Translations under genes and position numbers: made by a program
Notes under the pieces: model-generated
What the model saw: only the letters and a program-made list of their open reading frames with translations
What the model was told of the DNA's origin: nothing
Database searches by the model: none
Origin: Rhizophagus irregularis
Lineage: Eukaryota
Reading direction: 5' to 3'
NCBI RefSeq assembly: GCF_026210795.1
Contig: NC_089430.1
Location: 1,364,001-1,428,000 of the forward strand
DNA length: 64,000 nucleotides
Shown: one piece after another, positions 4,173 to 60,971 of the stretch
Numbering within the stretch: the stretch's first letter is position 1
Layout of the letters: each line of letters begins with the position of its first letter

Positions 4173-7100
4173 ATGTCTTCCCAAAATATACCTTTGAAAA
4201 GAAGTAATATTCTGAAATATTTAGAAACCAATTTTACAAATTGGACCAGTGGAAATGGAAAAATTGATGATTTCATTCAAGAAAGGCAATTAAAAATTAA
4301 TAACTATGATGATATAGTGCTTGAATGGATTCCATACAATCAGTTTAATGAAATCAAAGAGACAGGTAACAATGGCTCTGTAACAGTATATTCAGCAAGA
4401 TGGAAGGATGGCCCATTATACATAAGGTGTTTGTGCAGCAATTTTTATAGAAGAAATTCAAATAAAGAAGTTGCTTTAAAATGTTCGCATAGTTCACAAG
4501 AATCCATTGATTCTTTAATAAATGAGGTATGAAATTTCTTCAAATATTTTAATACTTTTTTTAATTAATATATTGACAATCTCTTTTATTTATGTTTAGG
4601 CTAAAAAACATCCAATAAAACATAAAGTATTTCAAGTATTGTATGGAATATCTCAAAATCCAGATACAGGAGATTATATTTTGGTTCAAAACAATTATAT
4701 GTGGACAAGTGAAAATGAAAAAATTGATGATTTCATTCAAGAAAGGCAATACAAAATTAACAAATATGATGATATTGTACTTGAATGGATTCCATACAAT
4801 CAGTTTAGTGAAATTAAAGAGATAGGTAAAAATGACTTTATAGCAGTATATTCAGCAATATGGAAGGATGGTCCATTATATAAGGAATATAAATGGAGTG
4901 ATTATACAAGAAATCCAAATAAAAAAGTTGCTTTAAAATATTTATATAATTCACAAGAATCCATTGATTCTTTGATAAATGAAGTATGAAATTTCTTCAA
5001 ATATTTAAATACTTTTTTTAATTAATATATTTACAATCTCTTTTATTTATATTTAGACTAAAAAATATCCAACAAATTATGAAGTATTTCAGGTATTGTA
5101 TGGAATATCTCAAAATCCAGATACAGGAGATTATATTTTGGTTCAAAATAATTTTACATGGATAAGTGGAAATGAAAAAATTAATGATTTCATTCAAGAA
5201 AGGCAGTACAAAATTAACAAATATGATGAAATTGTACTTGAATGGATTCCATACAATCAGTTTAGTGAAATTAAAGAGACAGGTAAAAATGACTTTGTAA
5301 CAGTATATTCAACAATATGGAAGAATGGTCCATTATATAAGAAATATGAATGGAGTGATTATACTAGAGATTCAAATAAAAAAGTTGCTTTAAAATGTTT
5401 ACGTAATTTGCAAGAATCCATTGATTCTTTAATAAATGAGGTATGAAATTTCTTCAAATATTTAATTACTTTTTTTAATTAATATATTTACAAACCTTTT
5501 TATTTATATTCAGATTAAAAAATATCCAACAAAACACAAAGCATTTCAAGTATTATATGGAATATCTCAAAATCCATATACAGGAGATTACATTTTAGTT
5601 CAAAACAATTCTATAAACTTGACAAACTGTATTAGTGAAATTGAAAAAATTGATGATTTTATTCAAGAAAGGCAATTAAAAATTAATGACTATGATGATA
5701 TAGTGCTTGAATGGATTCCATACAATCAGTTTAATGAAATTAAAAAGAAAGGTAAAATTGGCCCTGCAATAGTATATTTAGCAATATGGAAGAATGGTCC
5801 ATTATATTATAATAAACTGTATGGAAATTATACTAGAGATTCAAATAAAGAGGTCACTTTAAAATATCTATATAATTTACAAGAATCTATTGATTCTTTA
5901 ATAAATGAAGTATGAAATTTCTTCAAATATTTTAATCCTTTTTTAATTTATATATTAACGATCTCTTTTATTTATGTTTAGGCTAAAAAATATCCAATGA
6001 AACACAAAATATTACAAGTATTGTATGGAATATCTCAAAATCCAGATACGGGAGATTATATTTTGGTTCAAAATAATTATATGTGGACAAGTGGAAATGA
6101 AAAAATTGATGATTTTGTTCAGGAAAGGCAATTAAAAATTAATAATTATGATGATATTGTGCTTGAATGGATTCCATATAATCAGTTTAGTGAAATTAAA
6201 GAGACAGGTAAAAATGACATTGTAACAGTATATTCAGCAATATGGAAGGATGGTCCATTATTCAAGTTGTTTGATGATGATTATTATACAAGAGATTCAT
6301 ATAAAGATGTTGCTTTAAAATGTTTACATAATTTGCAAAAATCCATCAATTCTTTAATAAATGAGGTATGAAATTTCTTCAAATATTTAAATACTTTTTT
6401 AATTAAGAAATAATGTATTCACCGCACCCCGCGTTACAAATTTATATATATTTTTATATTTATCATTTGCTATTTTAAGGGGTGCGGCGTATAAACTAAA
6501 GATCGACATAAATAATTTACAAAAAAGGAAGGATACTTTGTAACTCAGGGTGCGGTAAATAAATTCACTCTTTAATTAATATATTTACAATCTCTTTTAC
6601 TTATTTTTAGGCTAAAAAATATCCAACAAATTACAAAGCATTTCAAGTATTATATGGAATATCTCAAAATCCAGATACAGGAGATTATATTTTTGTTCAA
6701 AACAATTATATGTGGACAAGTGGAAATGAAAAAATTGATGATTTCATTCAAGAAAGGCAATTAAAAATTAATGAATATGATGATATAGTGCTTGAATGGA
6801 TACCATACAAGCAGTTTAAAAAAGTTAAAGAATCAGGCAAAAATGGCCTTATAACAGTATATTCAGCAATATGGGAGGATGGTCCATTATATAAGAAGAA
6901 TAAATGGAGTGATTGTACAAGAGATTCATATAAAAAAGTTGATTTAAAATGTTTTTATAATTCACAAGAATCCGTTGATTCTTTAATAAATGAGGTATGA
7001 AATTTCTTTAAATATTTAAATACTTTTTTTTTAATTAATATACTTATAAATTCTTTATTTATATTTAGGCTAAAAAATATTCAACAAAATATGAAGAATT

Positions 7101-10100
7101 TCAAGTATTGTATGGAATATCTCAAAATCCAGATACAGGAAATTATATTTTGGTTCAAAACAATTATATGTGGACAAGTGGAAATGAAAAAATTGATGAT
7201 TTCATTCAAGAAAGGCAATTAAAAATTAATGAATATGATGATATAGTGCTTGAATGGATACCATACAAGCAGTTTAAAAAAATTAAAGAATCAGGCAAAA
7301 ATGGCCTTATAACAGTATATTCAGCAATATGGGAGGATGGTCCATTATATAATAAGGAGAATAAATGGAGTGATTGTACAAGAGATTCATATAAAAAAGT
7401 TGCTTTAAAATGTTTTTATAATTCACAAGAATCCGTTGATTCTTTAATAAATGAGGTATGAAATTTCTTTAAATATTTAAATACTTTTTAATTAATATAC
7501 TTATAAATTCTTTATTTATATTTAGGCTAAAAAATATTCAACAAAATATGAAGAATTTCAAGTAATGTATGGAATATCTCAAAATCCAGATACAGGAAAT
7601 TATATTTTGGTTCAAAATAATTATATATGGACAAGTGGAAATGAAAAAATTGATGATTTCATTCAAGAAAGGCAATACAAAATTAACAAATATGATGATA
7701 TTGTACTTGAATGGATTCCATACAATCAGTTTAGTGAAATTAAAGAGATAGGTAAAAATGACTTTATAGCAGTATATTTAGCAATATGGAAGGATGGTCC
7801 ATTATATAAGGAATATAAATGGAGTGATTATACAAGAAATCCAAATAAAAAAGTTGCTTTAAAATATTTATATAATTCACAAGAATCCATTGATTCTTTG
7901 ATAAATGAAGTATGAAATTTCTTCAAATATTTAAATACTTTTTTTAATTAATATATTTACAATCTCTTTTATTTATATTTAGACTAAAAAATATCCAACA
8001 AATTATGAAGTATTTCAGGTATTGTATGGAATATCTCAAAATCCAAATACAGGAGATTATATTTTAGTTCAAAATAATTATACATGGATAAGTGGAAATG
8101 AAAAAATTGATAATTTTGTTAAGAAGAGGCAATTAAAAATTAATAAACATGATGATATTGTGCTTGAATGGATTCCATACAATCAGTTTAATGAAGTTGA
8201 AGAAATAAACAAAACTAGTCTTATAACAGTATATTCAGCAATATGGAAGGATGGTCCATTATATAAGAAATATAAGCAGAGTGATTATACAAGAACTTCA
8301 AATAAAGAAGTTACTTTAAAATACTTGCATAATTCACAAGAATCCATTGATTCTTTTATAAATGAAGTATGAAATTTCTTTAAATATTTAAATACTTTTT
8401 TTTATTGTGTATATTTATAATTTCTTTAATTTATATTTAGACTAAAAAATATCCAACAAAATATGAAGTATTTCAAGTATTGTATGGAATATCTCAAAAT
8501 CCAAATACAGGAGATTATATTTTAGTTCAAAATAATTATACGTGGATAAGTGGAAATGAAAAAATTGATGATTTTGTTAAAAAGAGGCAATTAAAAATTA
8601 ATAAACATGATGATATTGTGCTTGAATGGATTCCATATAGTCAGTTTAGTGAAATTAAAGAGACAGGTAAAAATGACTTTGTAACAGTATATTCAACAAT
8701 ATGGAAGGATGGTCCATTATATAAGAAATATGAATGGAGTGATTATACTAGAGATTCAAATAAAAAAGTTGCTTTAAAATGTTTACGTAATTTGCAAGAA
8801 TCCATTGATTCTTTAATAAATGAGGTACGAAATTTTTTCAAATATTTAAATACTTTTTTTAACTAATATATTGACAATCTCTTTTATTTATATTTAGGCT
8901 AAAAAATATCCAACAACAAAACATAAATTATTTCAAGTATTGTATGGAATATCTCAAAATACAGATACAGGAGATTACATTTTGGTTCAAAATAATTATA
9001 CGTGGACAAGTGGAAATGAAAGAATTGATGATTTTGTTCAGGAAAGGCAATTAAAAATTAATGAATATGATGATATAGTGCTTGAATGGATACCATATAA
9101 TCAGTTTAGTGAAATTAAAGAGACAGGTAAAAATGACTTTGTAACAGTATATTTAGCAATATGGAAGGATGGTCCATTATATAAAAAACATGAATGGAGT
9201 GATTATACAAGAAATCCAAATAGAGAAGTTGTTTTAAAATGTTTAAATAATTCACAAGAATCCATTGATTCTTTAATAAATGAGGTATGAAATTTTTTCA
9301 AATATTTTAATCCTTTTTTTAGTTAATATATTAACAATCTCTTTTATTAATATTTAGACTAAAAAATATCCAACGAAACATAAAGTATTTCAAGTATTGT
9401 ATGGAATATCTCAAAATCCAGATACAGGAGACTATATTTTGGTTCAAAATAATTATATGTGGACAAGTAGAAATGAAAAAATTGATGATTTTATTCAAGA
9501 AAGGCAATTAAAAATTAATAACCATGATGATATAGTGCTTGAATGGATACCATATAATCAGTTTAGTGAAATTAAAGAGACAGGTAAAAATGACTCTGTA
9601 ACAGTACATTCAGCAATATGGAAGGATGGCCCATTATACCATCAATTCCAATCACTTATCCAAATAGTGGTCATAAAGTATTTGCATAGCAATTTTTATA
9701 CAAGAAATTCAAATAAAAAAGTTGCTTTAAAATATCTACATAATTTACAAGAATCTATTGATTCTTTAATAAATGAAGTATGAAATTTCTTCAAATATTT
9801 AATTACTTTTTTTAATTAATATATTTACAAACCTTTTTATTTATATTCAGATTAAAAAATATCCAACAAAACACAAAGCATTTCAAGTATTATATGGAAT
9901 ATCTCAAAATCCATATACAGGAGATTACATTTTAGTTCAAAACAATTCTATAAACTTGACAAACTGTATTAGTGAAATTGAAAAAATTGATGATTTTATT
10001 CAAGAAAGGCAATTAAAAATTAATGACTATGATGATATAGTGCTTGAATGGATTCCATACAATCAGTTTAATGAAATTAAAAAGAAAGGTAAAATTGGCC

Positions 10101-13100
10101 CTGCAATAGTATATTTAGCAATATGGAAGAATGGTCCATTATATTATAATAAACTGTATGGAAATTATACTAGAGATTCAAATAAAGAGGTCACTTTAAA
10201 ATATCTATATAATTTACAAGAATCTATTGATTCTTTAATAAATGAAGTATGAAATTTCTTCAAATATTTTAATCCTTTTTTAATTTATATATTAACGATC
10301 TCTTTTATTTATGTTTAGGCTAAAAAATATCCAACGAAACACAAAATATTACAAGTATTGTATGGAATATCTCAAAATCCAGATACGGGAGATTATATTT
10401 TGGTTCAAAATAATTATATGTGGACAAGTGGAAATGAAAAAATTGATGATTTTGTTCAGGAAAGGCAATTAAAAATTAATAATTATGATGATATTGTGCT
10501 TGAATGGATTCCATATAATCAGTTTAGTGAAATTAAAGAGACAGGTAAAAATGACTTTGTAACAGTATATTCAGCAATATGGAAGGATGGTCCATTATTC
10601 AAGTTGTTTGATGATGATTATTATACAAGAGATTCATATAAAGATGTTGCTTTAAAATGTTTACATAATTTGCAAGAATCCATCAATTCTTTAATAAATG
10701 AGGTATGAAATTTCTTCAAATATTTAAATACTTTTTTAATTAAGAAATAATGTATTCACCGCACCCCGCGTTACAAATTTATATATATTTTTATATTTAT
10801 CATTTGCTATTTTAAGGGGTGCGGCGTATAAACTAAAGATCGACATAAATAATTTACAAAAAAGGAAGGATGCTTTGTAACGCAGGGTGCGGTAAATAAA
10901 TTCACTCTTTAATTAATATATTTACAATCTCTTTTACTTATTTTCAGGCTAAAAAATATCCAACAAATTACAAAGCATTTCAAGTATTATATGGAATATC
11001 TCAAAATCCAGATACAGGAGATTATATTTTTGTTCAAAATAATTATATGTGGACAAGCGGAAATGAAAAAATTGATGATTTTGTCCAGAAAAGGCAATTA
11101 AAAATTAATAAACATGATGATATAGTGCTTGAATGGATACCATATAATCAGTTTAGTGAAATTAAAGAGACAGGTAAAAATGACTTTGTAACAGTATATT
11201 CAGCAATATGGAAGGATGGTCCATTATATAAAAAACATGAATGGAGTGATTATACAAGAAATTCAAATAAAGAAGTTACTTTAAAATATTTACATAATTC
11301 ACAAGAATCCATTGATTCTTTTATAAATGAGGTATGAAATTTCTTTAAATATTTAAATACTTTTTTTTATTATGTATATTTATAATTTCTTTAATTTGTA
11401 TTTAGACTAAAAAATATCCAACAAAATATGAAGTATTTCAAGTATTGTATGGAATATCTCAAAATCCAAATACAGAAGATTATATTTTGGTTCAAAATAA
11501 TTATACGTGGATAAGTGGAAATGAAAAAATTGATAATTTTGTTAAGGAGAGGCAATTAAAAATTAATAAACATGATGATATTGTGCTTGAATGGATTCCA
11601 TACAATCAGTTTAATGAAGTTAAAGAAATAAACAAAAATAGTTTTATAACAGTATACTCAGCAATATGGAAGGATGGTCCATTATATAAGAAATATAAGC
11701 AGAGTGATTATACAAGAAATTCAAATAAAGAAGTTGCTTTAAAATATCTACATAATTTACAAGAATCTATTGATTCTTTAATAAATGAGGTATAAACTTC
11801 TTCAAATATTTAAATGCTTTTTTTATTAATATATTTACAATCATTTTATTTATGTTTAGGCTGAAAAATATCGAATAAGACATACAGTATTTCAAGTATT
11901 ATATGGAATATCTCAAAATCCAGATACAGGAGATTACATTTTAGTCCAAAACAGTTCTATAAACTTGGCAAATTGTATCAGTAAGAATGAAAAAATTGAT
12001 GATTTCATTCAAGAAAGACAATACAAAATTAACAAATATGATGATATTGTACTTGAATGGATTCCATACAATCAGTTTAGTGAAATTAAAGAGATAGGTA
12101 AAAATGACTTTATAGCAGTATATTTAGCAATATGGAAGGATGGTCCATTATATAAGGAATATAAATGGAGTGATTATACAAGAAATCCAAATAAAGAAGT
12201 TGCTTTAAAATATTTATATAATTCACAAGAATCCATTGATTCTTTGATAAATGAAGTATAAAATTTCTTCAAATATTTAAATACTTTTTTTAATTAATAT
12301 ATTTACAATTTCTTTTATTTATTTTTAGACTAAAAAATATCCAACAAAATATGAAGTATTTCAAGTATTGTATGGAATATCTCAAAATCCAGATACAGGA
12401 GATTATATTTTGGTTCAAAATAATTATACATGGATAAGTGGAAATAAAAAAATTAATGATTTCATTCAAGAAAGGCAATACAAAATTAACAAATATGATG
12501 AAATTGTACTTGAATGGATTCCATACAATCAGTTTAGTGAAATTAAAGAGACAGGTAAAAATGACTTTATAGCAGTATATTCAGCAATATGGAAGAATGG
12601 TCCATTATATAAGGAATATAAATGGAATGATTATACAAGAAATTCAAATAAAGAAGTTGCTTTAAAATATTTATATAATTCACAGGAATCCATTGATTCT
12701 TTGATAAATGAAGTATGAAATTTCTTTAATATTTAAATACTTTTCTTAAATTAGTATATTTACAATTTCTTTTATTTATATTTAGACTAAAAAATATCCA
12801 ACAAAATATGAAGTATTTCAGGTATTGTATGGAATATCTCAAAATCCAGATACAGGAGATTATATTTTAGTTCAAAATAATTATACATGGAGTAGTGGAA
12901 ATGAAAAAATTGATAATTTTATTCAAGAAAGGCAATTAAAAACTAATGAATATGATGATATTGTGCTTGAATGGATTCCATACAACCAGTTTAGTGAAAT
13001 TAATGAAATGGGTAAAAATGGCTCTATAATAGTATATTCAGCAATATGGAAGGATGGTCCATTATACAAAAAAGATAAGTGGAGCAATTATGCAAGAAAT

Positions 13101-15017
13101 TCAAATAAAGAAGTTGCTTTAAAATGTTTACATAATTTACAAGTATCCATTGATTCTTTAATAAATGAAGTATGAAATTTCTTTAAATATTTAAATACTT
13201 TTTTTTAATTATTATATTTACAATTTCTTTTATTTATTTTTAGACTAAAAAATATCCAACAAAATATGAAGTATTTCAGGTATTGTATGTAATATCTCAA
13301 AATCCAGATACAGGAGATTATATTTTGGTTCAAAACAATTCTATAAACTTGGCAAATTGTATCAGTGGAAATGAAAAAATTAATAACTTCATTCAGGAAA
13401 TGCAATTAAAAATCAATAATAAACATAATACAGTATTTGAATGGATACCTTACAATCAGTTCAACAAAATTAAGGAAATAGGCAAAAATAGTTCTATTAC
13501 GATATATTCAGCAATATGGAAGGATGGACCATTGCATTATAATAATAAGTATAATAAATATATGAGAGATTCAAATAAAGAGGTTGCTTTAAAATATTTG
13601 TATAATTCACAAAATTCTGTTGATTTTCTAATAAATGAGGTATAAAATTTTAATAATCATTCTTAATATTTAATTAATATGATATATTTATCTCTTTTGT
13701 TTATTATATTTAGGCTGAAAAATATTTGACAAAAAAAATAATTGACAGAGTAATTTGTAATATATATGGAATATCTCAAAATCCAAATACAAATAATTAT
13801 ATTTTAATTTTAATATGGGCGAGTGGAAATGAAAAAATTGACAATTTTATTCAAGAAATACAATTACAAATAGATAAATATAATGATATAGTATTTGAAT
13901 GGATACCATATAAACAGTTTAATAATATTAAAGAAATAGATAAAGGTGGATTTGCTACAGTATATTCTGCAAATTGGAAAAATGGTCCATTAGAATTTGA
14001 TACAGATAAAAAAATATATATAAGGAATCCAAATAGAGTAATTGCCTTAAAATGCTTGCATAATTCACAGAATATTACCAATAAATTTTTGAATGAGGTA
14101 TGAATTTTCTTTTAATAATTGAAGTTCATTTGTAGTAATAAATGTGTTAATTTAAGCAATATATTGTTTATTATAAATACATTTAATAGGTTAAAGAATA
14201 CTCAATAAATAAAAGAAGTAATATTCTTAATATACATGGAATATCTCAGGATCCAGATACAAAAGAATATATTATGGTTCTCCAATATGCAAAAGAAGGC
14301 AATTTTAATCATTGGATAAATAAAAACTATGAATATTTTAATTGGAAAGATAAATTATTTGCATTGCTTGATATTATTAATGGCCTTAAAGAAATTCATC
14401 AAAAAAATATAGTTCATCGTGATTTTCATACAGGAAATATATTATTTTTAAGAAATATAAATGCTTTTGGTAATTGTATATCAATTTCAGACATGGGATT
14501 ATGTGGAGAGGTTGGTAATATAGATGAAACAAAAATTTATGGAGTTATGCCTTATGTGGCTCCTGAAGTATTAAGAAGAATGCCTTATACCCAAGAATCA
14601 GATATCTATAGTTTTGGTATGATAATGTATTTTATAGCAACTGGAAGACAACCTTTTTACAATTATGCACATGATAAGTTATTAGTATTAGATATTTGTG
14701 AAGGAGTTAGACCTGAAATAAATGAACCAGAAGCACCAAGTTGTTATATTAATTTAATGAAAAAGTGCTGGGATTTAAACCCAAATAATAGGCCAAATAT
14801 TTTTGAAGTAAAGGAATTAATCATGTCATTTCATAAGTCATATGGAATGGATTTTTTCAAAGCAGAAGAATATAGAAAAGCAAATCTTTCATTTATTAAA
14901 AATTACCAAATAACTACCCATCCACAAGCTATTTATACATCTCGGTTACTTAATCCTTTTACAGAAGACCTTCCAGAATATGATGATAATTCTCAATGTT
15001 TAGATCAAAAAATCTAA
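4173..15017 (+). CDS. Giant tyrosine-kinase-like protein kinase with 21 tandem kinase N-lobe modules, 22 exons, ~2,980 aa
   Basis: Exons 4173-4526, 4600-4983, 5057-5440, 5514-5909, 5982-6365, 6611-6994, 7069-7455, 7526-7909, 7983-8366, 8441-8824, 8898-9284, 9358-9777, 9851-10246, 10319-10702, 10948-11331, 11406-11789, 11860-12255, 12329-12712, 12786-13169, 13244-13639, 13714-14097, 14190-15017. Introns are GT..AG, phase 0, after ...LINE/FLNE. Final domain has DKGGF, IALK, HRDFHTGN, DMG, YVAPE, SDIYSFG. Confidence 0.9.
6407..6570. mobile_element. 164-bp MITE in intron 5, Mutator-like by TSD length
   Basis: Imperfect ~34-bp TIRs (GAAATAATGTATTCACCGCACCCCGCGTTACAAA / TTTGTAACTCAGGGTGCGGTAAATAAATTCACTC) and 9-bp TSD TTTAATTAA; the empty site is visible in the sister introns. 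Confidence 0.85.
9778..11057 (+). repeat. ~1.3-kb near-identical internal duplication of ~5441-6720
   Basis: ORF 9956 is identical in protein to ORF 5619; ORF 10358 nearly matches ORF 5997; introns and MITE are shared. Confidence 0.9.
10744..10907. mobile_element. Second copy of the same MITE in intron 14, copied by segmental duplication
   Basis: Near-identical to 6407-6570 at offset 4337, with the same flanks and TSD. Confidence 0.85.
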
Positions 15018-15349
15018 ATCCAAATAAAATCCAAGCAAAGCACATATAATAAATTTTGTTGAAAAGATATGAATTATTCACTTTATATATATTTGTATAT
15101 CAGTTATTTATAGAATTTACAATTAATTTATAGTTTTTGTCCAACTCTATAGTTATTTTTTTTACAAAAACAAAATCTATTTGTAATTGGACATATTTGT
15201 GTGTAATATTTTCTTTGATGTAATAAAAATATGATGGACTTGGTTTACAGTACAATTTCTTGAATGTCTTTTTCTTAAATAAACCTTTTCCTGAAGTCAA
15301 ATTTTCTGAATGATCATTTCCAGTTTCCTGGACACCAATTTTCCAAATT

Positions 15350-29103: not shown

Positions 29104-30789
29104 TCAATTAACGATTTCACATTCTAAACATTCACTATTACTTTTTGAAAGCTCTCCTATAATATAAAAAATAATTCATATAAGTAGTCTGAAATGAGTA
29201 AAACAAATAAGTTAAAAGAATTATTTCATTAAATACCTGAATATATAATTTCTGTTATATTATCACAATTTTCATAATAATTATTAGAATTTTTTGGTTC
29301 GGGAAGATTATTAAATTTAAAAGGTCTACTTGCATATATAGCTCCAGGATGTGTAAAAGGTAAATTAGAAATATTAGTAGATGATGAATTATCATTAATA
29401 TCTAACATTTGTTTAATTAATTCTGATTCAACTAATTCTGGTTGCTTATTTCTATATTGATTAAGTTCTATGTTCCATTCATTAATAGTTCTCGAAAGAT
29501 CCTTTGCATTTGGTCGGTTTGAAGGATTTGCATCTAGACATCTTTTAATTAAATACACAATTAATTGTGGTACCTTAATATTAAAATTGGGTCTTAACCC
29601 TTTACAGATCTCCGTTGCTAAATATTCATCGTGATTAATATCTGGATATGGAGGAGTTTTTGAAATTGTTTCATACATAATTATGCCAAAACTGTAAATA
29701 TCAGATGCTTGGGTATAATGTCCTTCTCTTATAACTTCAGGAGCCATATAAGGTAAAACACCATACACGGTATTATCCGTATTTTCTAATTTATCATAAT
29801 ATGCTGGTTTACATAATCCCATATCGGTTATACACGTTGTTCGCATAAAACTTAATATATTTCCAATATGTAAATCTCGATGAATTAAACCTTTTTCATG
29901 AATTCTTCTAAGTCCGGCTGCAATATCACTTAAAATACCGATTTTAAAATTTAAATTAAAATTAATATAACGCATTTTTTTTTGATTTAACTTTATGTCA
30001 TTTAAAAAATTTCGTAAACTTCCCCTTTTAGCATATGGCATGACCATAATATAATCTTTAGTAGATGGATCTTGACTTATCCCATAACATCTTACAAATT
30101 CATTTAATGGTTTATATTCAAATATCTTAACGTGTGATGTGACCTATATTATTAAATAAATTAATTAGCAAAATTAAAACATTTAAAAATAAAAAACTAA
30201 AAAAATATATATATACTTCATTGATAAATTTCAATGTAAGATTTTGTGATCTATCTAAAATTTTAAGGGCCACATATGTATTCGGATTATTTCTTCTCCA
30301 TTGATGTTTAGTTGCATCCCAATGTGAAATATAGCCATCTTTCCAATATGCTCTATATATTTTTCCAAACCCGCCTTTTGCAATATATACAATTTCAGAA
30401 AATCTATCATAAGGTATCCACTCAAGTAATTGAAAATGACTTCTTGCTGATAATTGATTATTTTGAATAAACTTATCAATGTCATCATTACCACTAGTCC
30501 AATTACTAAAATTTTGTTGAAATTTATTTGAATTACAAGTATGACACCAATTCTTCCCCGAATTTATTTGTTTACATTCTGCACACTTTCCATATTTTTT
30601 TTCTCCATAAATTGAACTACAGGTATGACAATAATTTACTTCTTTATTTATTGGCTTTATTTGTTTGCATGATATACACTTTCCATGTTCTCGTTCTTTT
30701 AAATTCGAATTACAAGCCTGACAAATGAGTGAAGTACTTATTTGTTTACATTTTATACATCTTCCATATTCTTCGTTTGATTGATCCAT
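29104..30789 (-). CDS. Tyrosine-kinase-like protein kinase with three N-terminal CxxC..CxxC repeats, 3 exons, ~510 aa
   Basis: Exons 30789-30217, 30143-29237, 29156-29104; AKGGFG, VALK, HRDLHIGN, DMG, YMAPE; C-terminus SECLECEIVN. Confidence 0.88.
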
Positions 30790-32275
30790 AGTACAAACAG
30801 TAATCACTACGATTCTGAAAAGGAAAAGGATAATCGAACGGTTATTTTTGTGAGATATAAAAAGTATTACCAAATTATAATAATTTTAAATTAACGTTAA
30901 GTGATGATTGAGTCTCTATATATAAAAAAAATAATAAATCAAAGCTAAACTATTCTTATCACTATCGGCCGAATCGGAAAAACCTTTTTATGGAAAGGAT
31001 GATCCATTTACCAATTCTTACCATTGTTTAAAAAATAAAGATACCCGAAATTTTTCTAGATTTTTCTACGCCTAATTGATGATGATTATATCCTGAAATT
31101 GTATTGGAATGAAAAATTGGGCGTATTTTAAGTATTTTTTTTTGGATTGGATTTCACATTTAATCTAACCATAATTCTCAATTTGGTCGAAAATACTCTC
31201 ATATTTGTTTAAATTCTTTTTTTGTTTTTTAAAAAAAAAGGAATTACTTTCCATTTTTAATTTATTCTTTTCTCTTTTTCGTAATAAAAAGGAGTTGAAC
31301 TTTTAAAATAATTCAAGAAATCATTTAACCATTTTTGTTGAACCTTTTTTTTTTTTAACTCTAAAAAAAAATTCATCTCACAAAAAGAAATTACTCAATA
31401 TTTCATTTTAATTAATTATATTTATATTAGGTTATATTAATATTTATAGTTATGATGTTTATCATTTTTATTAATGTTATAATAGTTGTTTATGTAACGT
31501 GAACCATACAAAAATACAACGTTCGGATAAAAGTATTGAGGGAAAAATTTCCTGATATGGGATTTGTAGGAATAATTATATATTTCAAATTAAAAATATA
31601 ATATATTTTAAAAGTATTACATAGTAATGGATTTTATTATTATAATATGAAGAATTATATTTCAAAAACTTACTAAATAGGAAACGGAAACCGTCGTTAA
31701 GTTCAAAGTCCATTTAATTACATTTATGGAATGGGCGTAAAGTTTAGGCTTTCAATAAGCACACAAATAAACAGTAACCTGCAGTTTTGTACGACTATCA
31801 TACATTCATTCAAGTATCTTTTCAACAAAAATTCTGATTGATTGTAAAAATAAGGTTATTGATATGCAGTTTAACAATAACGAAAATTCAAATACATGAG
31901 ACGAACATTTTTCTTGAATAAAAGAATATCATCAATATTTGAACGTCTGGACAGAATTTTCCGGTACGTGGTCGTCTGGTTGTGAAAATTTTTAAGACAA
32001 TTTGAAAAGTAAAATTATATTGTACCAATAAAAAAGGTATCTGCTCAACCGGGTTGAATAATAATAATATTAATCGCTTATAGTTTCTGTTTCTTTGTCC
32101 AAATGTGATGTGGTGGAACGTATAGCATGTGATCATTCAACCGTGATAGTAAATAACCAAATACAAATACATGTATTTAAACGGAGCGTTTCTTTTTTTT
32201 CAAAAAAAAAAAAAAAATTAATAATTAATAAGATAAACCAAAACTCATTTAATACCTATTTTTTTTTAAGTGAAA

Positions 32276-33383
32276 ATGGCAAATTCACTTTTGGCCGCAG
32301 CACTAAGTGCTGTAACGCATCGTTCGGTTATTACTTATGATGATTATTCAAACGGAGGATATGATGGATGCTCTCAATTGGATCAAAAGGCTCTTCATCA
32401 ATCTCATTTAATTGGCGGTAAAGTGCCAACATTTAATGAGGTTGTTAATTCAGGTCCATCGAATTTTGACACTATAAGAACAATGTCTTTTAATAGTAAT
32501 CGTAATCAGCACGACGATCAAAAGTGCGTGTACGTTAAAACATTAACTGGAAAAACTATAACAATTGAAGTCGAGTTTAGTGATACAATTGATCAATTAA
32601 AAACAAAAATTACTGAAAAAGAAGGTATACCACCAGATCAACAAAGATTAATTTTTGCTGGTAAGCAACTTGAAGATGGCCGTACTTTAAGTGATTACAA
32701 TATATGTGATGAGTCCACGCTACATTTAGTATTAAGATTAAGGGGTGGCTATCTTCCCCCTTCTACTGCTTTATTTATTCATCCGGATATGCTTGCACCA
32801 ACGTACGATTATGATTTTACGCAAGTAGATGATAAAGGTGTAACTTTTATGCGAGGAAATTTTGAGTATAAGCGACCTTGTGGCTGGAAAAGAATTGCTC
32901 TAAATGTTCTTAATAAATATGAAGATAATATTTGGCTCGGGGTTGATGGGAGTACTAGACAATCTATAACAAATTCAGTACAAAATGAATGGCCAGGTAT
33001 TTATTTTCTTTCTTTGATATGCATATATTTTATAATATCCTTATGTGCTAATTTAATATTTTATAAATTTAATAGTTTCATATCATGGAACTGCCAGGAA
33101 TAACTGCAAATCAATTGCTGAAGATGGGTATCTCTTGTGTAAGAGTAAACGATTCGCATTTGGACATGGAATTTATTCTACTCCAGATATTGATGTTGCA
33201 TATTTATACGCTACTGAATTTACTCATGAAGGAAGTAATTATAAAATCGTGTTTCAAAATAGAGTTAATCCAAACTGCTTAAATAGGGTTTCGAAGGAAG
33301 AAACTGGAGTTGGTGAATATTGGATTTCACCAAATGAAAGTGATTTGCGTCCTTATGGTATCTGTATTAGGAAAGAAAATTAA
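32276..33383 (+). CDS. Ubiquitin domain fused to a PARP-like (NEURL4-type) ADP-ribosyltransferase domain, 2 exons, ~342 aa
   Basis: Exons 32276-32996 and 33076-33383; near-canonical ubiquitin ending LRLRGG; then [28 protein letters not shown] motifs. Confidence 0.85.
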
Positions 33384-34404: not shown

Positions 34405-37400
34405 TTAATTCTCTTCAATCAATGAACAAAAATCAACGTCCATATCGTCAGAAATTTTATATTTATCGATATCTGTTAAAAATTAGAAAAAATATTAATT
34501 AAATATTTATAATAATAAAATTTTGCTTAAGTTACAAATTTATTACCATCTTTAGGGAGTTCCTCTACAAAAGGATTAAGTAATCGGGATTTATAAATAG
34601 CTTGTGGGTGAGTAGTAAGTGATTGGCTATCTTTAATAGATGAAAGATTTTTTCTTCTATATTCTTCTGCTTCATTAAATTGCTTTTCAATTTCATAATC
34701 TCTACTTCCAGACTTATGAAAATACGATCGAAAAAATAATGAAATTAATTCAAAAATTTCAGTTGTATTTGGCCTATTATATTGATTTAAATCCCAACAT
34801 CTTTTCATTAAATCAATATAACATTTTGGTGCTAATAATTCGTTTATTTCAGGTCTAATTCCTTTTAATATATCTGTTGCTAAAATATGATCATGTGCAC
34901 GATCTTCGAAAGGTTGTTTTCCAGTTATTACAAAGTACATAATCATACCAAAACTATATATATCTGCTGCTTGAGTATAAGGTTTTCCTTTTAACACTTC
35001 AGGAGAAACGTAAGGCATAATTCCACAAACATTATCTTGATTAGTATCACCAATATTTCCACTTAATCCCATATCTGAAATAAGTACATCATCATCAGAT
35101 ATTGTACTTTCTAAAAGAAAGCTTACGCTCAATAATATATTTCCTGTATGAAAATCATGATGAACCATATCTCTTTGATGAATTACTTTAAGTCCTCTTA
35201 TAACATTATATAATAAAACTAATTTATTTTGCCAATCAAAATATTCATAATTTTTTATCATCCAATGGTCAAAATCATTTCCCTTTGCATAATCAAGAAC
35301 CATAATATAATGTTTTGAAACTGGATCCTGAGATATGCCATATACTTTAAGAATATTATCACGATCATAAACACTATTAATTGAATATGCTTTAATCTAT
35401 TAAAAAAAAGAAAAATTCATTATTATTATGCTGCAAAATGTTTAAATTATAAGAAACTATTTCATACCTCGTTTAAAAATTCATTAGAGATATCTCGAGA
35501 ATCACTTAAACATTTTAAAGCAACTTTTTTATTCTTAATTCTTTTATAATCAAATTTTTTTTTACGATTGTATTTTAATGGACCATTTTTCCATATCGCT
35601 GAATACACTATAGAAAATCCACCTTTACCTATTTTTTTAATATCTCTAAACTGATTATATGGAATCCATTCAAATATTATATCACTTGATTTATCAATTT
35701 CTGATCGAAATTCTTTAAGCATATTATTAATTTTTTCATTTCCGCTAGTAATATTTGTTAAATAAGTTTTTAAGTGACATAATTTACACCATTTGTGTTT
35801 TATATTCGTATATAATTCACCACATTTTTTACAATAATATCCATCTGGATAAATTATAACGTAATCCTTTGTAATTGGATGTTGTGATATTCCATATAAC
35901 TTACGAATGATATTATCATTATCATTGTCAGCATTATGGTTATCGTCGTCATCATCATCTTCTTCATCATCGTCATCATCATAGAAATCATACTTGTCAT
36001 TGTCATCATCATCATCATTGCTATTATTACCACCATCATAATCATCACTGTCATCATCGTCATCATCGTCATCATCATCATCACCACGACCACCATTATC
36101 ACTATTCTCTACAATCATAATATCATCGTTATCGTCATCATCATCTTCATAATAATCACCATCATAATCATCACTATTATTTTTATCACTTTTGATTGAA
36201 TGTGATTTAATCTATTAAGACATTAAGAAGTATTAATAAATATCCGAGAAAAAATATTATAAATCAATAAAAAAAATATTATTACCATATTCAGAAAATC
36301 ATTAGTGATATTTTGCGTGTTGTATAAACATTTTAAAATAACTTCTTTATTTTGATTTCTTGTATAACCATATTTATTTTTACGATAAATTAATGGACCA
36401 TCTTTCCATATTGCGGAATACAATGTAGAAAATTCATCCTCACATATTTTTATAATCTCATCAAACTGATTGTATTGTACCCATTCAAATGCTATATCCC
36501 ACGGATGATCCATTTTTAATTGCATTTCCTGGATTAAAGTATCAATTATTTCATTTCCACTAGTAGTAAATGTAAAAACATCTTTTGAATAACAGGGCTT
36601 ACACCATTTATGCTCTGTATTTGTGTATACTTTACAACATTTTTTACAATACCCATCTGATAGAACCATAATGTAATCTTTTGTTTTTGTATCTTGAGAT
36701 ATTCCATATATTTTAGGAATATTATTATTATCACGGTTATCATCATAATCATTATCAATTGAATATACCTTAATCTATTAAATATATAAAAAAAAAATTA
36801 AGTATTATAAAAAATATTATCATAAAATCCAATAAAAAAATTAAAATTTCTTACCTCATTTAAAAATTCGTTAGTAATAATTTTTGAGTTACTACTTATA
36901 TTACTATGTAGATACTTTAAAGTGACATTTTTATTTTGTTGGTTTCTTATATATTTATATGTATGATCATCACTAGCATCTTCAGCATCGTCATCATAAT
37001 GTAACAGACCATCTTTCCATATTGCTGAATATAATATGGATAGCTCATCTTCACCTAATTTTTTAATTTCATTAAATTGAATGTATGGTATCCACTCAAA
37101 TATTATATTTTTATAATCAAGGTTTAATTGCATTTCTTGAATTAAATTATCAATTTTTTCGTTTCCGCTAGTCCAATTTGTAAAATTTTCTTTCAAAAGA
37201 TTTATTTGACACGATTTACACCATTTGCACCATCTCTTATCTCTATAACTATATTGCTTGCCACATTTATCACAATGCATATATTGAAGAACCATGATAT
37301 AATCTTTTGTAATTGGATTTTGAGATATTCCATATATTTTAAGAACCTCATCAGCATATCTGCTAATAGTATATGATTTAACCTAAGAAAAAAAAATATA

Positions 37401-37847
37401 TCATAATTTTAGTATTAGATCGTAAAATATTATAATAAAATTTATTAAATCTCATACCTCATTTAAAAATTCATTAGAGATATTTTGTGAATTATTAAAT
37501 AAACATTTTAGTGTAACTTTTTTATTCGGATTTCTTTCGTATATTTTTTTATTATCATTATATTCTATTGGTCCATCCTTCCATGTTGCTGAAAGTACAG
37601 TAACTATATTATCTTTATTTAATTCTTTAATATCATTAAATTGATTATATGGTATCCATTCAAATATAATATTCCATGGACTTTCAATTTTTGATTGCAT
37701 TTCTTGAATTAAATCATCAACGATTTTATTTCCGTTCGGGTTTGTAAAATTATTTCTTAAATTATCTATTTGGCATGATCTACACCATTCAAGGTGCATA
37801 TATCTACCACATTGATCACAAACTTTTACAGAAAACTCTCTATACAT
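34405..37847 (-). CDS. Protein kinase with 4 tandem zinc-finger + N-lobe modules and a poly-Asp insert, 6 exons, ~1,020 aa
   Basis: Exons 37847-37458, 37382-36855, 36774-36286, 36211-35468, 35396-34547, 34472-34405; last module GKGGF/VALK; C-lobe HHDFHTGN, DMG, YVSPE. Confidence 0.87.
35905..36200 (-). repeat. Imperfect (GAT/GAC/AAT)n coding microsatellite
   Basis: (TCA)n-rich tract on the plus strand, read in frame as an Asp/Asn run in exon 4 of the kinase. Confidence 0.9.
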
Positions 37848-38232
37848 TTTTGCTAAATTTTCAATTTTTTATTTTAATTCGAATGAGAGTGTGTGAATAA
37901 TTTTTTTGTTAATGGAAAAAATCAGCTTAAATAGTTTGTATAACCAATGATCAAAACATACTAAATTAGTAATATCCGAAAATGTAGATCGTTTGTAATA
38001 CATTAATAGTTCGGTTAGGCAAAATGGTAACCACAAGGCGACGCAAAAGTTATTTTTATTTTTATTTTTTGGCCAATAAAAGTAGTTTATATTTTATAAT
38101 ATCATGTGATAAACGCATGTATTATAGAAATCAATATCGAGACGACGAGACGGACACATTGCTTTAAAGAAAATTTCTCATTCTGATATATGAAAAAAAA
38201 AGATTAGCAATTTTATTTATTTATTTTATTAA

Positions 38233-49973: not shown

Positions 49974-51215
49974 CTAGATTGGTAAAGTACAGTACCATTC
50001 TGATTGATTAGCTAGTATTCTATCACCAGCTCTCGACATTAAGGTGGAAATAATACCTCGAGTCGGTGAATGTCTGTTCATAGCTATAATGTGGTAATCG
50101 TCACCAGAGTCAACCGTCATGAAACTAAGATGCTGGTATAACTGAGGTAAAACTGAATTCAGATTATTACCAACACTATGCCGAATTTTATATATCCGTC
50201 CTATCTCTTGATCTAATTCAGCTCGCATATCCATAGAATTCATGAAATCCTCAACATGGATATTTGGATTAAGTAAAACGAGCTGATCTATGGCTTCTTT
50301 AGTAATATTAGCACATCCCTCCAGATTAAGATATTTTAAATAAAGACACAAATGAGAAATTTCTTTGATAGTTACATCAGTAATTCCACAAAAACTAAGG
50401 TTGAGATGTTGGAGATTTGGACAGGAATGAATGGCATTGCAAATTGAAGTCTCGGTGACGTAAACACACCTACCAAAATCAAGATACTCCACACTAAGAT
50501 GTTTCTCTACATTAAGGTGTTTCTCTACAGTAAGAAGTTTTTTTACTAATATATCACATCTATTTTTTCTTCGACAGCTACCCGGAATACTGAATCTTCA
50601 TAAATTTGGACATGAGTTTAAGATGTGACTTATAAATCTTTCAGAAATCAAATGCGTACAAGCAAAATGAAACTCTTGTAAAGCTTGGCAACTGTCCGCA
50701 ATTTTGATTAAAGATCTATCAGTAATACCTTGGCAGAAAGAAATATTTAGATATTCTATTTTACGACATGATCCCACCATTCCACATAAAGCTTTATCAC
50801 CCATAATACCACTACTACATAAATTAAGATATCTCAGATTGGGGTATGCTTTAAGCTGATTTAATGCTCTATTACTAAAACCCACACAATTTTCAAAATT
50901 CAAATGAATTATGTTTGGGCATGTTCTTACGATACCTTCAATTTTCTTACTTGAAAGTGGATTATAGTATGAAATTTCGAGATGGGTTGGTTTCGAGCTA
51001 TAAATTGGCTTTTGCTTCCCACATACTAATTCTATGAATTTCTTTGCTTTGGGATCATTCCCTTTTAGCTCAATGCGTCTCCATAGAATAGGGGCACCGC
51101 ATCTGTACCACAATCGGGAAACATATAGAGCGGGATAGAGAGATTTATCTATCAATAAGAAATATAAAATTTGTTCTAATAGTTCTGGTAAATAAAAGAT
51201 GGTTAAATGCGTCAT
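49974..51215 (-). pseudogene. F-box + cysteine-containing LRR protein, split by one in-frame TGA
   Basis: LPELLEQIL..LYVSRLW F-box; LxxLNLxxCxxITD repeats; ORFs 50598-51215 and 49974-50492 share a frame across TGA 50598-50600. Confidence 0.8.
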
Positions 51216-51260
51216 AAATAATATATGCTGTATCTTTAAACAAAAAATAAAATTACGCGA

Positions 51261-51737
51261 TCACTGATTCAGACCCGCATGATTGGAATCATGGGTTTCT
51301 TTGGACTCAGATGAATCTGTCTCCTAGCAGAATGGCACAAAATCACCATATATTGTTAATCCTTGTTTTTCCATATCTATTTTTGCTTCACGAAGCCATA
51401 ACCATGGTAATCCTAATACAAGGTCCGCTTTCGGCTTTTCAATAATCATGAAATCATTAAAAACATCGTCACCATTAGTAGATACTAGTTTATCTTTCCC
51501 TTCATATCAGAAAGATAAATCCAGACATTCCAACCTGTTTTTTTCTTTATATTCAGTGTACTCCATCTCAAGCTTATCAACCAAGCTTCTTCTAATAAAA
51601 TTTTCTCTAGATGATGTGTCTATCAATGCCTTAACTGTATAGAATCTATATCCTGCTTTCATTGCTCCGTGGCAACTTTTTAGATCTATATCATCATCTC
51701 CCTGAAAATGCCAAACTTTACATTCTATATAAGCCAT
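51261..51737 (-). pseudogene. Stand-alone retropepsin-like aspartic protease with stops
   Basis: KALIDTSSRENFI and, past TGA 51507, ADLVLGLPWL..AKID. Confidence 0.7.
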
Positions 51738-52045
51738 TTTAAGTATTGTGTTTTATAACCGAATATATTTAATGGTAAAAATATAGGGTTCATGACTCCT
51801 TGTCCTTGCGGCCATGTTATGCATCCAAAAAGGTCTTGAGGCATCATCACTCCTCGTATTATTAATGGAGTCGAATTACTATATTTGTTTTTTATCTTCA
51901 CGATAATTGAGAGATCTAGTGGATTCCTATCTGTAAAAATATACACTGATTATAGTTAATAAGGTGTCATCAGTCGTGGACCGCCCAAAGGGCACATGAA
52001 AATGTATCTGTTATTAAAATTGAACTAGCATGATATATATTAGTT

Positions 52046-53274
52046 GTGCAAGCGACATATATTATGGACGGTCAAAGCCTTCACGATCCAGCTACAGTTC
52101 GGATTATATCCGCAGAGAGTGTGAGAAAAATTTTAAAGGCATGGGATTTCGATGAAATGGTAATCAACTCATGGTATAATGATGTAGAAGTTCTGGTGGA
52201 AGAAAATGATATGTTTTATGTCACTAGAATAGCGATTCTTTGTGGAATGAAACACTTTCATGCAAGTGATTGTCCTATCATTAACGCACCTTACACCAAG
52301 ATTCATCTTCGACTCACAGATAAGAATCATGCATGACTATTCTACCGTATTTTAATGAAACAATTTTGTCAGCAAAAGGCGGTTTTTCCTTCTTATCTCT
52401 ATTCTCTTAACATTCAAACGGCCGCTTTTTTACTTCATATGGTATTGCCAGCTTAAAGTTACTCATTAGTGCGTGCCACAGCTTAAGGGTATTGGCTATA
52501 AGCGATATAGTGGATGATGAACTGGTCAAAATTATAACAATCTCGTGTCCCTCCCTTCATTGCATAAGATTATCCTCGTGTGATGGTGTAACTGATGATT
52601 CACTAAAATTGCTTGCAAAAACATATTCTCATCTTCTGTCATTAGACTTGGGTGGTGATAGCTGTCATATTTCAGATGCGGGCATCAAATCATTAACACA
52701 ATCGTGTACTGAGTTACAAGCCATTGATCTCGATAACTGCGAGTATATAACAGACAAGTCCATAGAATACATAGCAAACTCTTGTCCAAACCTAAAAAAG
52801 TTAGGATTGATTTGCTGCAACACCATCACCGAAAATGTGATTGTTGGTCTACTTCGGTGTTGTACACAAATTGAGACCCTCCTGATACCGGAATGCAATG
52901 TTAGTGACAAGACTATGTCTGTTATCACTGAATGTTGTCCACAATTGAGAGCTCTAGATGTTTGTAGTAAAATTCTAACCAATGAGCCTGTTATCGCTTT
53001 TATCGAGTCATGCAGAAAGGTAGAAGACTTAGTACTTCATTATCGCAATATGACTACTTTTGTCATAAATACCATTGCACAAAATTGTCCTGTTTTGCAT
53101 TTACTTGACGTGGAATGTGACCAGGAATTAAGTGTAGACTTGATAGGAACATTGTACGGTTCGAGGTCATTTGGCTTTACCGAAAAACGTTGCACTAAAT
53201 TCAGATATAGACAAGTTAGTATCCGAACTTGCTCCTCATTTGATGAAATGTTTCCCAGGAATATGGATCTCTAA
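52046..53274 (+). pseudogene. Cysteine-containing LRR (RNI/FBXL-like) protein, 5' part disrupted
   Basis: Repeats such as CPSLHCIRLSSCDGVTDDSL and CTELQAIDLDNCEYITDKSI; upstream ORF 52046-52336 separated by TGA and a frameshift. Confidence 0.7.
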
Positions 53275-53807: not shown

Positions 53808-56800
53808 TAGTGATACCGGGCGAAACTATTTTTTTCAATCCGAAATATTTCGTCTTTTTTTTTGAAGGATAAATTTATTCCGAAACCTAAACTTATTCCG
53901 AAACTTAAATGTATATCCGAAATGATGAAATATGTATTTATAGTACAACATAGTATTTAAGGTTTAGTAAACTAGCCAATTATAGTATAATTATTTTATT
54001 TTACATTTAGTAAATGTATAATTTTAATAAATTTCAAAGAAAATGTAACACAATTTTCAACATATTATTATCAAAAAAGTTATAAGCATGTGAAAAAAAT
54101 ACGATTTCTAATATAAAATTGATTATAAAGTGTCTCCTTCTAATTCATTATCAAGTTAATATTGTTGAATTAATTCTTCAACATCATAATTACTTTCCAT
54201 TTCTACATTTTCACTATCGTCTAGTTCATCTTCACCATCAGTTTCATTAACATCATCATTAATATCACTATCATCCGAATTTTCACCATCATTATTCAAA
54301 CATTTTACTGCATTTTTTAAATTAAACATTTCTTCAATAATCAAAACCCGTACTTCATGATTAGGAATTTCTGAAATAGGAATATTTCTTCTATTATCGA
54401 TTTCATCTTCCTCCTCTTCAAATTGTAAACATGTTGAATTATTAATCATTTCATGCACTTCGTCCTCTGTATATTGTTGACCAACATAAGCAAGCTCATT
54501 TTTAATATTAGATACATAAAATGACCGAATTTTTGCCATAGCCTCAACCTTTAAAAGTTCTAATTGTTGCCGTTGTGTACCATATAACCAGCCAAGAGTG
54601 GAAAAAATTCTTTCACATCCTGCACTATGTGAAGTGATAGAAAACACCATTATAGCCAATGCAGGAAGATAATCATACTTGTCTTTGATTGTAAGCCACC
54701 AACTCATTGGTGTTTCAAGATGGCTATCAAACTTTTGATTATATGGACTCTTTCGCAATTCATAATTACGCATTTGTGCCAAAAGACGATTACATAACCT
54801 CCTGTCACCACCATTGTTTTGCCAAATCTGAGCCGCGGTAGTAGTGATAGTTTTCCAATATACTGCTTTTAATTCACGTGCTATTAAATATTTATAAAAA
54901 AATCAATTTATTTTTTTTTAATAAATAATTTCATTAAAAAATTAGGATTTTACTAACCGCGATAGGCAGGATGTAAAAAATATGCCAAAATATAGATTTT
55001 TGGATCAAACTTGTCCCAATATTTGTTAAATGATTCGATACAATGTTGATGAAATTCTACCATTCCTCGAGAAGGTAATTTTTTAATAGTATTTGCTATT
55101 AAAATCAATTGAAGAAAGCAATCAGCAAGGTTTGCATTAGCACTTTCAAGTAAGGTAATTGCAGTTTTAATCGGCTTTAGAACTTTGGTTAATTTATCAA
55201 CGTTTGAGAAAAATTCTGAGCTTCGAATATTTCGTCTAACACTTTTATTTGTGATTTCATTAGGATTATTCTTCAAAACCTATAAATATTTTACGAAATA
55301 TTATTAATAATCAGTAATATTACAATAACAAAATAAGAATTTATAGATATTGAAATAAACTCACATGTTCTAGTGCCATTCGTAAATGAGACACGGAACT
55401 TATAGCTTCATACATGGAAGTCCATCTTGTTTCACAGTATGTTTTAAGCCCTCCTCCTACAATTTGTAATGCAGTAGTAGCATCGGTCAATAATTTTCCT
55501 ACTATATGAGAACGTTTAAAGAATGATGTAATCTGATTACAGCCACTAATCGTTATTTTAGCCAAATCATGTTCTAAAATTAAAAAAAAAAGGTTAAAAA
55601 GATGAATTTTTAACAATAATTCATAATTATTTTATAGAATTTGAAACATACCCATAATCTGTTTGGTTACTAAATTGACGAAATGAGCAATGCACCAATG
55701 ATCAATAATGTTTGGAAATTGGTTCGTAACAATTTCTCTTGCTTTAACGCAATTTGCAGCATTATCAGTAACTAATGCAGAAACTTTTTCAGGGCCAATT
55801 TTTTTGATAATATCCGTAATTTGGCTTGCAAGAAAATCTCCTGTATGATGATCGCCTGAGTAGTCATAAAGAGCATAAAGGTATTGTTCTCGATCAGGAG
55901 TTAGGATTACATAGTTATAAACAGAAACACCATTTGGATTTGTCCAGCCATCAAGTGCTTAAAGAGTTAAACAATTAGAATTTAAAATTTTTAAATTTTT
56001 AAAAATTCATTTGATAACAAAACTTACCAAGTGTTAAATTCTCAGAATTTTTAATGATCTCCTTAATCTTGTCATTAATTCTTGCTGTTTCTTGATTTAA
56101 AAGTCTACCACTCAGCAATTCGCTTGTTGGAGGCTCATATCCTAGTCTCATTTCGTGGAGAAATTCAATAAAAAATGGATTCTCAATAATTGAGAATGGA
56201 ATACCGCAACATATAAATGCGCGCACAAGAGCACGAGTAATAGAAGCCTTTTTTTGAGAATTTATGTTAGTTGACTCAAACCAATCAGTCAACTCCCGCT
56301 GGTCCACCTGAGTTTTTCTTTTTTTACTATTTTCTGGCGAAGAAAAGGTATCTTCCCTTCCAAAATCCCGCGCAGAAACTACACCTAAGTAGAACGAATG
56401 AACAAGTTCTGGAACTTCTCTACAGTTGTTTGCTAAGTGATCTTCTAGCTCATTTGGATGACCACGAGGCCAATATATCCTACAATAATGACATTTGGCC
56501 AAAAAATGACCAGCAGACTTGAGTGGTTTCTTCTCATAATGTCTCCATACTTCACTTTGAGGACGACCACCTTTCTTCTTTTGTTGTTCAGTTGGAGTGT
56601 CTATTTTCTATAGAATATTGAACATTCATGAATATAGCAAAACAGCGAAAGTAATACATTGACGTGACTTTTGGCAATATATAAAGTCATTTGGTATCTC
56701 GTGCGGTTGTGCCTCGTGGGTTTTTTTCTATTTTAACAGTTATTGATTATCATTGATTTGATCATAATTAAAGTTTCACAGTCCGTATCAAAACTGTGCT

Positions 56801-60297: not shown

Positions 60298-60321
60298 TAA
60301 TTTGGTGATATCAGACTTTAA

Positions 60322-60871: not shown

Positions 60872-60971
60872 TTAAATTAATTTAATAATGGAATTAAAAG
60901 ATTTTTTTACTGCTTTATATTACCGACTAGTTTTTGTTATTCTAGAAAAGAATACTTTTCTAGTAGCTAGC

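Follow-up and report, generated by a model that had tools for sequence, protein, structure and literature searches.

We analyzed a stretch of 64,000 nucleotides (nt) from Rhizophagus irregularis (contig NC_089430.1, positions 1,364,001 to 1,428,000 of the forward strand), here called the window, and all coordinates are counted from its first letter. It carries a spliced gene (Table 1) whose product consists of 20 modules, each corresponding to the amino-terminal lobe (N-lobe) of a protein kinase, followed by one complete kinase of the tyrosine-kinase-like (TKL) type. The only carboxy-terminal lobe (C-lobe) in the gene belongs to that terminal kinase, and the 20 preceding N-lobes have none. All 21 introns are phase 0 and are placed directly after the codon of the glutamate of helix alphaC (…INE^), with each inner exon encoding the closing part of one N-lobe and the opening part of its successor. 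Differences in exon length are all multiples of 3, and the introns carry 1-nt indels. A first-pass annotation of the sequence had placed 21 modules between 4600 and 13639; 19 module exons lie there, and the higher count is reached only by adding the first exon (4173-4526) and the exon 13714-14097, the latter being the N-lobe of the terminal kinase itself.

Table 1. Features of the window, with positions in window coordinates.
Feature	Position	Strand	Remarks
Spliced gene, 22 exons, 2983 amino acids	4173..15017	+	One frame, sole stop terminal, after removal of 21 GT-AG introns
First exon: start codon and front part of N-lobe module 1	4173..4526	+	
19 inner module exons, 384-420 nt, phase-0 introns	4600..13639	+	Tandem period 457
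Former Gly loop of first inner module (GKNDF)	4825..4839	+	Counterpart in every module; dN/dS neutral-like
beta2-beta3 hairpin of first inner module (YKEYKWSD)	4879..4902	+	Counterpart in every module
Fastest four hairpin codons, first inner module	4885-4896	+	
Block of intron-exon-intron-exon-long intron	5441..6610	+	Recent duplicate at 9778-10947
MITE-like insertion in intron, 173 bp, 43-nt inverted arms	6406..6578	+	Second copy at 10743-10915
Exon with front of terminal kinase N-lobe (DKGGFATV, IALK, alphaC Glu)	13714..14097	+	
Last exon: beta4-beta5 and C-lobe (HRDFHTGN, DMG, APE)	14190..15017	+	Pfam PF07714, E 1.4e-33
Single-N-lobe kinase, same family	29229-30885	-	Six CxxC motifs, intact Gly loop
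Second gene of this kind	34527-37868	-	Four exons each with CxxC pairs and N-lobe, then C-lobe

Splicing was seen at the 3′ end of the gene in RNA data comprising two polyA samples and a further run, X1, whose status as RNA is a guess. The intron before the terminal N-lobe exon (13640-13713) is spliced in 7 polyA reads, and the following one (14098-14189) in a single X1 contig; poly(A) is found at 15255 in X1 contigs. RNA depth over the 3′ end is low, and most reads placed there come from paralogs. By inspection, P0069, an annotated R. irregularis protein, agrees with the first four exons. We rejected the reading of the locus as a pseudogene because the frame is intact and the ratio of nonsynonymous to synonymous substitution rates (dN/dS, or omega) is below 1. 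An assembly artefact is unlikely, since the duplicated block of Table 1 differs at a few sites between its copies and P0069, which was annotated independently, matches the exons just mentioned. CpG is strongly depleted in the exons of 4600-13639 (observed/expected 0.12), which fits the reported methylation of these kinase genes. A metagenome scan returned 92 pattern matches and, from these, 3 distant loci (44-49% identity, under 2 kb) that could not serve for dN/dS estimates.

The terminal domain scores 116.7 bits against PF07714, above the curated threshold of 23.1, and contains DKGGFA (in which the first Gly is Asp), IALK, NE, HRDFHTGN, DMG, and APE, which we take to be the Gly loop, beta3 Lys, alphaC Glu, HRD, DFG-like, and APE motifs. 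Judged by score and motifs, it is a PF07714/TKL-type protein kinase. When three module exons were scanned, Pfam returned no family at its cut-off; direct comparison of a repeat exon with the terminal N-lobe exon gives 56% identity (E 3e-45). None of the 19 inner modules has an intact Gly-rich ATP-binding loop, and all 19 retain the beta3 Lys and the alphaC Glu. For the fold we relied on a homolog, P0093 (912 amino acids), whose structure was predicted from an alignment of 75 of 120 relatives (mean predicted local distance difference test, pLDDT, 81.9; predicted template modelling score, pTM, 0.63). In that model every module has a leading helix, five strands, and alphaC in constant order, with the Gly-loop position at the beta1-beta2 turn and the beta2-beta3 segment as a two-stranded hairpin. 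The modules are accordingly modelled, by analogy with P0093, as five-stranded N-lobes with alphaC and a predicted beta2-beta3 hairpin. The best sequence matches of P0093 are Roco4, CAMK, and RIPK1 (E about 1e-19), and its terminal domain superposes on EGFR/HER2/RET with Z 29 and a root-mean-square deviation of 2.5-3.2 over about 280 residues; these structural matches to solved kinases cover the terminal kinase of P0093 only. A single-sequence fold of one exon, whose ends differ from the domain boundary, reached a pLDDT of 38.8, and an ESM Atlas match to a TGF-beta GS-domain cluster was left unused at 0.85, under the bar of 0.9. In the four of 22 exons that were scanned, Pfam found no match to a NACHT or NB-ARC domain.

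The array has been reshaped by recombination. A PHI-like (pairwise homoplasy index) test was exceeded in 0 of 3000 permutations, segment trees gain 116-234 log-likelihood units over a single tree, and a mosaic map displays the modules as mosaics. The duplicated block is recent in appearance, its paired exons differing at 0 and 3 nucleotides, and the duplication is marked by the insertion resembling a miniature inverted-repeat transposable element (MITE), which is flanked by TTAA-rich repeats and has only these two copies within the window. Mean module identity, derived from per-column diversity, is about 77%, and some pairs are identical or nearly so. The repeats of this gene are under concerted evolution; across genes, the sharing seen was confined to hairpin types.

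The distribution of diversity was measured on the 19 inner modules over 128 of 149 alignment columns. The first-pass annotation had described a nearly fixed scaffold with variation focused in two loops, the former Gly loop and the beta2-beta3 segment, and had proposed diversifying selection on both as binding surfaces. All the motifs and loop variants that it quoted are present in the sequence, and its near-invariance holds for E, W, I, P, and Y of LEWIPY, W, G, P, and L of WKDGPL, LK, and NE (19/19 each); the other motif residues are less strict (L of LEWIPY 18/19; K and D of WKDGPL 17/19 and 15/19). The beta2-beta3 segment is likewise a true hotspot, with 1.60 bits against 0.48 outside both loops, and 20,000 column shuffles produced no 8-codon window as high. 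The same cannot be said of the Gly loop, whose 0.91 bits (p = 0.10 for a fixed window) rank 20th among 5-residue windows; strand beta1 reaches 0.93, the alphaC-beta4 loop 0.83, and the linker 0.78, values of the same order. Nor is the variation focused in two loops, which together hold only 22% of the total amino-acid diversity, or the scaffold nearly fixed, as only 44 of 128 columns are invariant and its dN/dS of 0.42-0.57 amounts to moderate purifying selection. Raw nucleotide diversity is 0.115 in the introns, 0.205 in the Gly loop, 0.367 in the hairpin, and 0.113 in the rest. The module has one hotspot, not two, and its scaffold is not frozen. Thirteen of the 19 hairpins are of one alignable type, and equal hairpins recur in otherwise unlike modules; the remaining six, which represent four independent variants, resist base-by-base alignment, one of them with a 12-codon insertion. 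At about 9630-9700, the hairpin of one module has an in-frame insertion of 11-12 codons before a loop like that of the first exon.

Because recombination is heavy, codon models were run on one tree and on three trees of equal-length segments, the breakpoints not being inferred. We used our own MG94xGTR implementation, rather than PAML or HyPhy, with branch lengths fixed from M0. Overall omega is 0.48-0.66. The introns evolve at 0.88-0.97 of the synonymous rate, which validates the rate scale, and the scaffold at 0.47; with p < 1e-4 for its dN/dS, the scaffold is under purifying selection and conserved as protein. The Gly loop, with a total rate of 0.67 of neutral and a dN/dS (0.67-1.25) never different from 1, gives the proposed diversifying selection no footing. 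For the hairpin the evidence is mixed. Measured against the gene-wide dS, hairpin omega is 1.9-2.8 (p < 0.002); measured against the local dS, which is 1.9-2.7 times baseline, it falls to 0.7-1.4 and is not significant in any of five settings. Site models comparing M2a with M1a returned p values of 0.27, 0.077, and 0.012, and significance is lost once dS may vary (twice the log-likelihood difference, 2dL, 1.1-2.9). With the six unalignable hairpins masked, hairpin omega is 0.78-1.31 and the total rate 0.84-0.98 of neutral, and no single hairpin variant accounts for the omega excess. A hairpin-specific rate of multi-base changes is favoured (2dL 7.2), at 0.74-0.77 versus 0.04 elsewhere, or about 20 times. 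The observed module-wide statistic, 6.4, lies above the 5.99 mark of all 40 neutral simulations. When strong selection is simulated (4 sites, omega 6), the median is 31.5 and the 5th percentile 11.3, and the observed value is compatible with eight sites at omega 3 (median 13.8, 5th percentile 4.9), these omega values being stand-ins and not those published for het-e. The excess at the hairpin tip is weak, model-dependent, and far below simulated strong selection.

As a control we turned to the wider family. The named relatives are from R. irregularis, R. clarus, and Glomus cerebriforme (among the best 120 of 500 and the best 120 of 518 matches), and the N-lobe array is common in Rhizophagus and Glomus. 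A hidden Markov model (HMM) gave 1069 hits in 120 proteins, at 4-15 hits per protein, and from these we retained 867 near-complete modules, 62 terminal and 805 repeat, with P0069 left out; the set includes alleles from several assemblies, and its modules are not independent. It supersedes an earlier regex parse that found only 581 modules. The G-G-F/Y motif is kept in 59 of 62 terminal N-lobes vs 10 of 805 repeats, a pattern that indicates relaxation through loss of the ATP-binding constraint. The beta3 Lys is kept in 62/62 terminal and 716/805 repeat N-lobes, and scaffold residues are conserved across the 805 repeats. In both classes the hairpin varies more than any other segment, with 2.57 bits in terminal and 3.12 in repeat N-lobes (elsewhere 1.06 and 1.25). 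In disjoint close pairs, the ratio of hairpin to scaffold divergence spans 2.2-3.6 among repeats (298 pairs) and 1.9-4.3 among terminal N-lobes (22 pairs), and hairpin length differs in 100 and 1 of these pairs, respectively. Ile, Leu, and Phe are underrepresented in the hairpins, which are richer in Lys, Asn, Tyr, Asp, and Trp, as expected of a surface loop. Counted within proteins, there are 753 distinct hairpins among the 805 modules. Twenty of the 120 listed relatives (P0003, P0005, P0007, and 17 others) lie on one 4.92 Mb R. irregularis contig, with locus tags from OCT59_008295 to OCT59_008672, which suggests a large gene cluster. Forty-nine of the 120 are without a C-lobe hit and are either array-only proteins or split annotations.

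The window contains two further kinases related to this gene (Table 1). In the gene at 34527-37868 GKGGF survives in the last N-lobe alone, one exon contains a long insert rich in Asp, and one exon is 99% identical to R. irregularis OCT59_011723; its unit of zinc ribbon plus N-lobe may be an older form of the module. Elsewhere in the window, the open reading frame at 32270-33103 (+) is presumably a ubiquitin-like domain protein, and judging by eye we take 49974-53274 and 54156-63738 to hold leucine-rich-repeat F-box-like proteins on both strands together with hAT/BED-finger transposase-like pieces.

We favour, with a probability of roughly 55%, the explanation that an N-lobe exon was copied twenty times before a complete kinase, that the variation among the copies mostly reflects relaxed constraint rather than diversifying selection of the immune type, and that the copies likely form a non-catalytic binding or regulatory arm. 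Copies without a C-lobe could not bind ATP productively, and the Gly loop would drift because they no longer need it. The modules would be homogenised and shuffled by unequal crossover and gene conversion, processes helped by the common position of the phase-0 introns. The hairpin would tolerate change even in active kinases, with in-frame indels and multi-base changes raising dN and dS together. The array itself would be retained as a folded arm of the protein, one that binds partners or holds the terminal kinase in check, and a binding or regulatory arm is the most likely role because the scaffold is conserved as protein. A tolerant, indel-prone hairpin, freer still in the repeats, explains most of the data on slightly better than even odds. 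Several results pull the other way. The local rise in dS at the hairpin is borderline (p 0.006-0.058), and selection that resists gene conversion can likewise produce a narrow peak of dN and dS. The unmasked hairpin evolves at 1.8 times the neutral or intron rate (confidence interval 1.35-2.46), 40 neutral simulations reach at most 5.6 in the 8-codon statistic for which the hairpin scores 18.8, and masking drops the most divergent hairpin variants and so biases omega down. Given its own multi-hit rate, the hairpin retains an omega of 1.4 (p 0.22) or 1.8 (p 0.035), depending on the frequency model. Off-modal hairpin lengths are found in 52% of repeats vs 23% of terminal N-lobes, and Trp is richer in repeat hairpins (4.9% vs 1.2% in terminal ones). 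Any partner and any function of the array are, finally, putative.

Alternatively, the dead N-lobes may be a recognition or decoy repertoire, in which diversifying hairpin tips would capture a foreign or non-self protein and activate the terminal kinase, a reading that we hold to be possible and less probable. The bound protein might be, for example, a kinase-targeting factor, and repeat shuffling could renew specificities as in the Podospora HNWD genes, a refinement we regard as equally tentative. Four contiguous codons at the hairpin tip have an omega of 3-6 unmasked and still 2.3-3.0 after masking (p 0.049 and 0.009, from 1000 neutral simulations, post hoc and corrected for the choice of window inside the loop, not for that of the loop), a result that also counts against relaxed constraint. 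The concerted evolution of the modules, the wealth of distinct hairpins, and the clustering of 20 relatives on one contig fit a repertoire as well, and in wheat RWT4, according to the available part of one study, a partial copy of the kinase at the N-terminus is what binds a fungal effector (10.1101/2024.04.30.591956). Against this, the tip signal is far under simulated strong selection, changes with the frequency model, and lacks significance when dS may vary; most hairpins are of one type, with identical ones in otherwise different modules; the hairpin is hypervariable in terminal kinases too; the Gly loop shows no selection; and the exons scanned, four of 22, contain no NACHT or NB-ARC match. 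Modest diversifying selection on the hairpin tip is conceivable at odds well short of even. Somewhat more doubtful still is the broader picture of a Glomeraceae N-lobe that became its own repeat unit, in clustered receptor-like kinases with tens of dead, shuffled N-lobes that display a diversifying hairpin and form a decoy or non-self repertoire wired to the terminal kinase. The array could also have arisen as a near-neutral side product when exons were duplicated within an expanded family prone to repeats, tolerated before the kinase and without function of its own; module number does vary widely among relatives, RNA depth is low and mostly owed to paralogs, and these kinase genes are, as far as the accessible text goes, reported as more methylated and located in gene-sparse regions (10.1101/2021.03.30.436303). 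We consider this improbable, as scaffold dN/dS is well below 1, 21 exons contain no frameshift or stop, and the scaffold is conserved throughout the family's repeats. Most improbable of all are alternative cassettes, in which exon skipping would join any module front to the terminal C-lobe and yield kinase isoforms with different N-lobes. The uniform intron phase and position (21/21 at one alphaC site) and the beta3 Lys and alphaC Glu of every inner module would suit such a device; the repeats lack G-G-F, and such isoforms are therefore likely inactive. Moreover, both GT-AG joints seen at the 3′ end connect neighbouring exons, and among the loose ends listed at the last two acceptors (42 more fall outside the list) none resembles an upstream module.

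Arbuscular mycorrhizal (AM) fungi carry a large and, to our knowledge, unexplained expansion of TKL genes. Many such expanded kinases carry tandem N-lobe-only arrays that are conserved as protein, shuffled by recombination, and unnamed by Pfam, and this repeat family is a more interesting object than the two-loop claim, which was in part confirmed and in part overstated. Should the hairpin tips have binding partners, the family would be a testable candidate for a role in sensing or non-self recognition, and a true recognition repertoire would account for part of the kinase expansion. If they bind nothing, it is still a clear case of a half-domain turned repeat, and a warning that hypervariable repeat loops can stem from relaxed constraint and indels.

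Our literature search found no description of N-lobe arrays within its coverage, outside of which subscription papers and supplements may describe the family, and bioRxiv 10.64898/2026.02.17.706082 contained none of the terms looked for in it. PF07714 kinases are expanded in AM fungi according to the parts we could consult of one account (PMC6123716), which do not mention N-lobe repeats, and of another (10.1101/2021.03.30.436303); the present gene has the same terminal domain, and its relatives are annotated as Rhizophagus and Glomus kinases. The likeness to solved kinases such as RIPK1, Roco4, BRAF, and the EGFR type is limited to the terminal kinase of P0093. The proposed resemblance to the WD40 and TPR repeats of immune receptors extends to repeat shuffling and not yet to selection or binding. 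In the WD40 repeats of the Podospora HNWD genes (het-d/het-e) and the TPR and ANK repeats of fungal NOD-like receptors (NLRs), concerted evolution is accompanied by variation at few positions (PMC1805685, PMC4986451, both available in part), and the NLR repeats were defined by high internal conservation, 85% over 100 amino acids, in the accessible text of PMC4986451. The Rhizophagus array likewise consists of tandem repeats that resemble one another, evolve in concert, and vary chiefly at a few positions. It differs in that its modules are kinase N-lobes, in that the gene comprises N-lobes and a C-lobe, with no NOD domain found in the four of 22 exons scanned, and in its selection: as far as the available HNWD text goes, four codons under strong positive selection alternate with conserved codons there, whereas here a weak, model-dependent excess falls on an indel-prone hairpin. 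With another fold, no NOD domain found, and weaker selection, the array is not a member of the HNWD/fungal NLR repeats. The closest precedent is the wheat tandem kinase RWT4, in which, in the portion of that work open to us, a partial kinase duplication (KDup) is needed to bind a fungal effector (10.1101/2024.04.30.591956). Both proteins place an N-terminal partial copy of their own kinase front before a kinase that is active or, in the Rhizophagus gene, presumably so. RWT4 has a single partial copy without the active-site Lys, plus a pseudokinase, whereas the Rhizophagus gene has 20 full N-lobes that keep the Lys and one C-lobe, which makes one complete kinase in place of two (pseudo)kinase domains.

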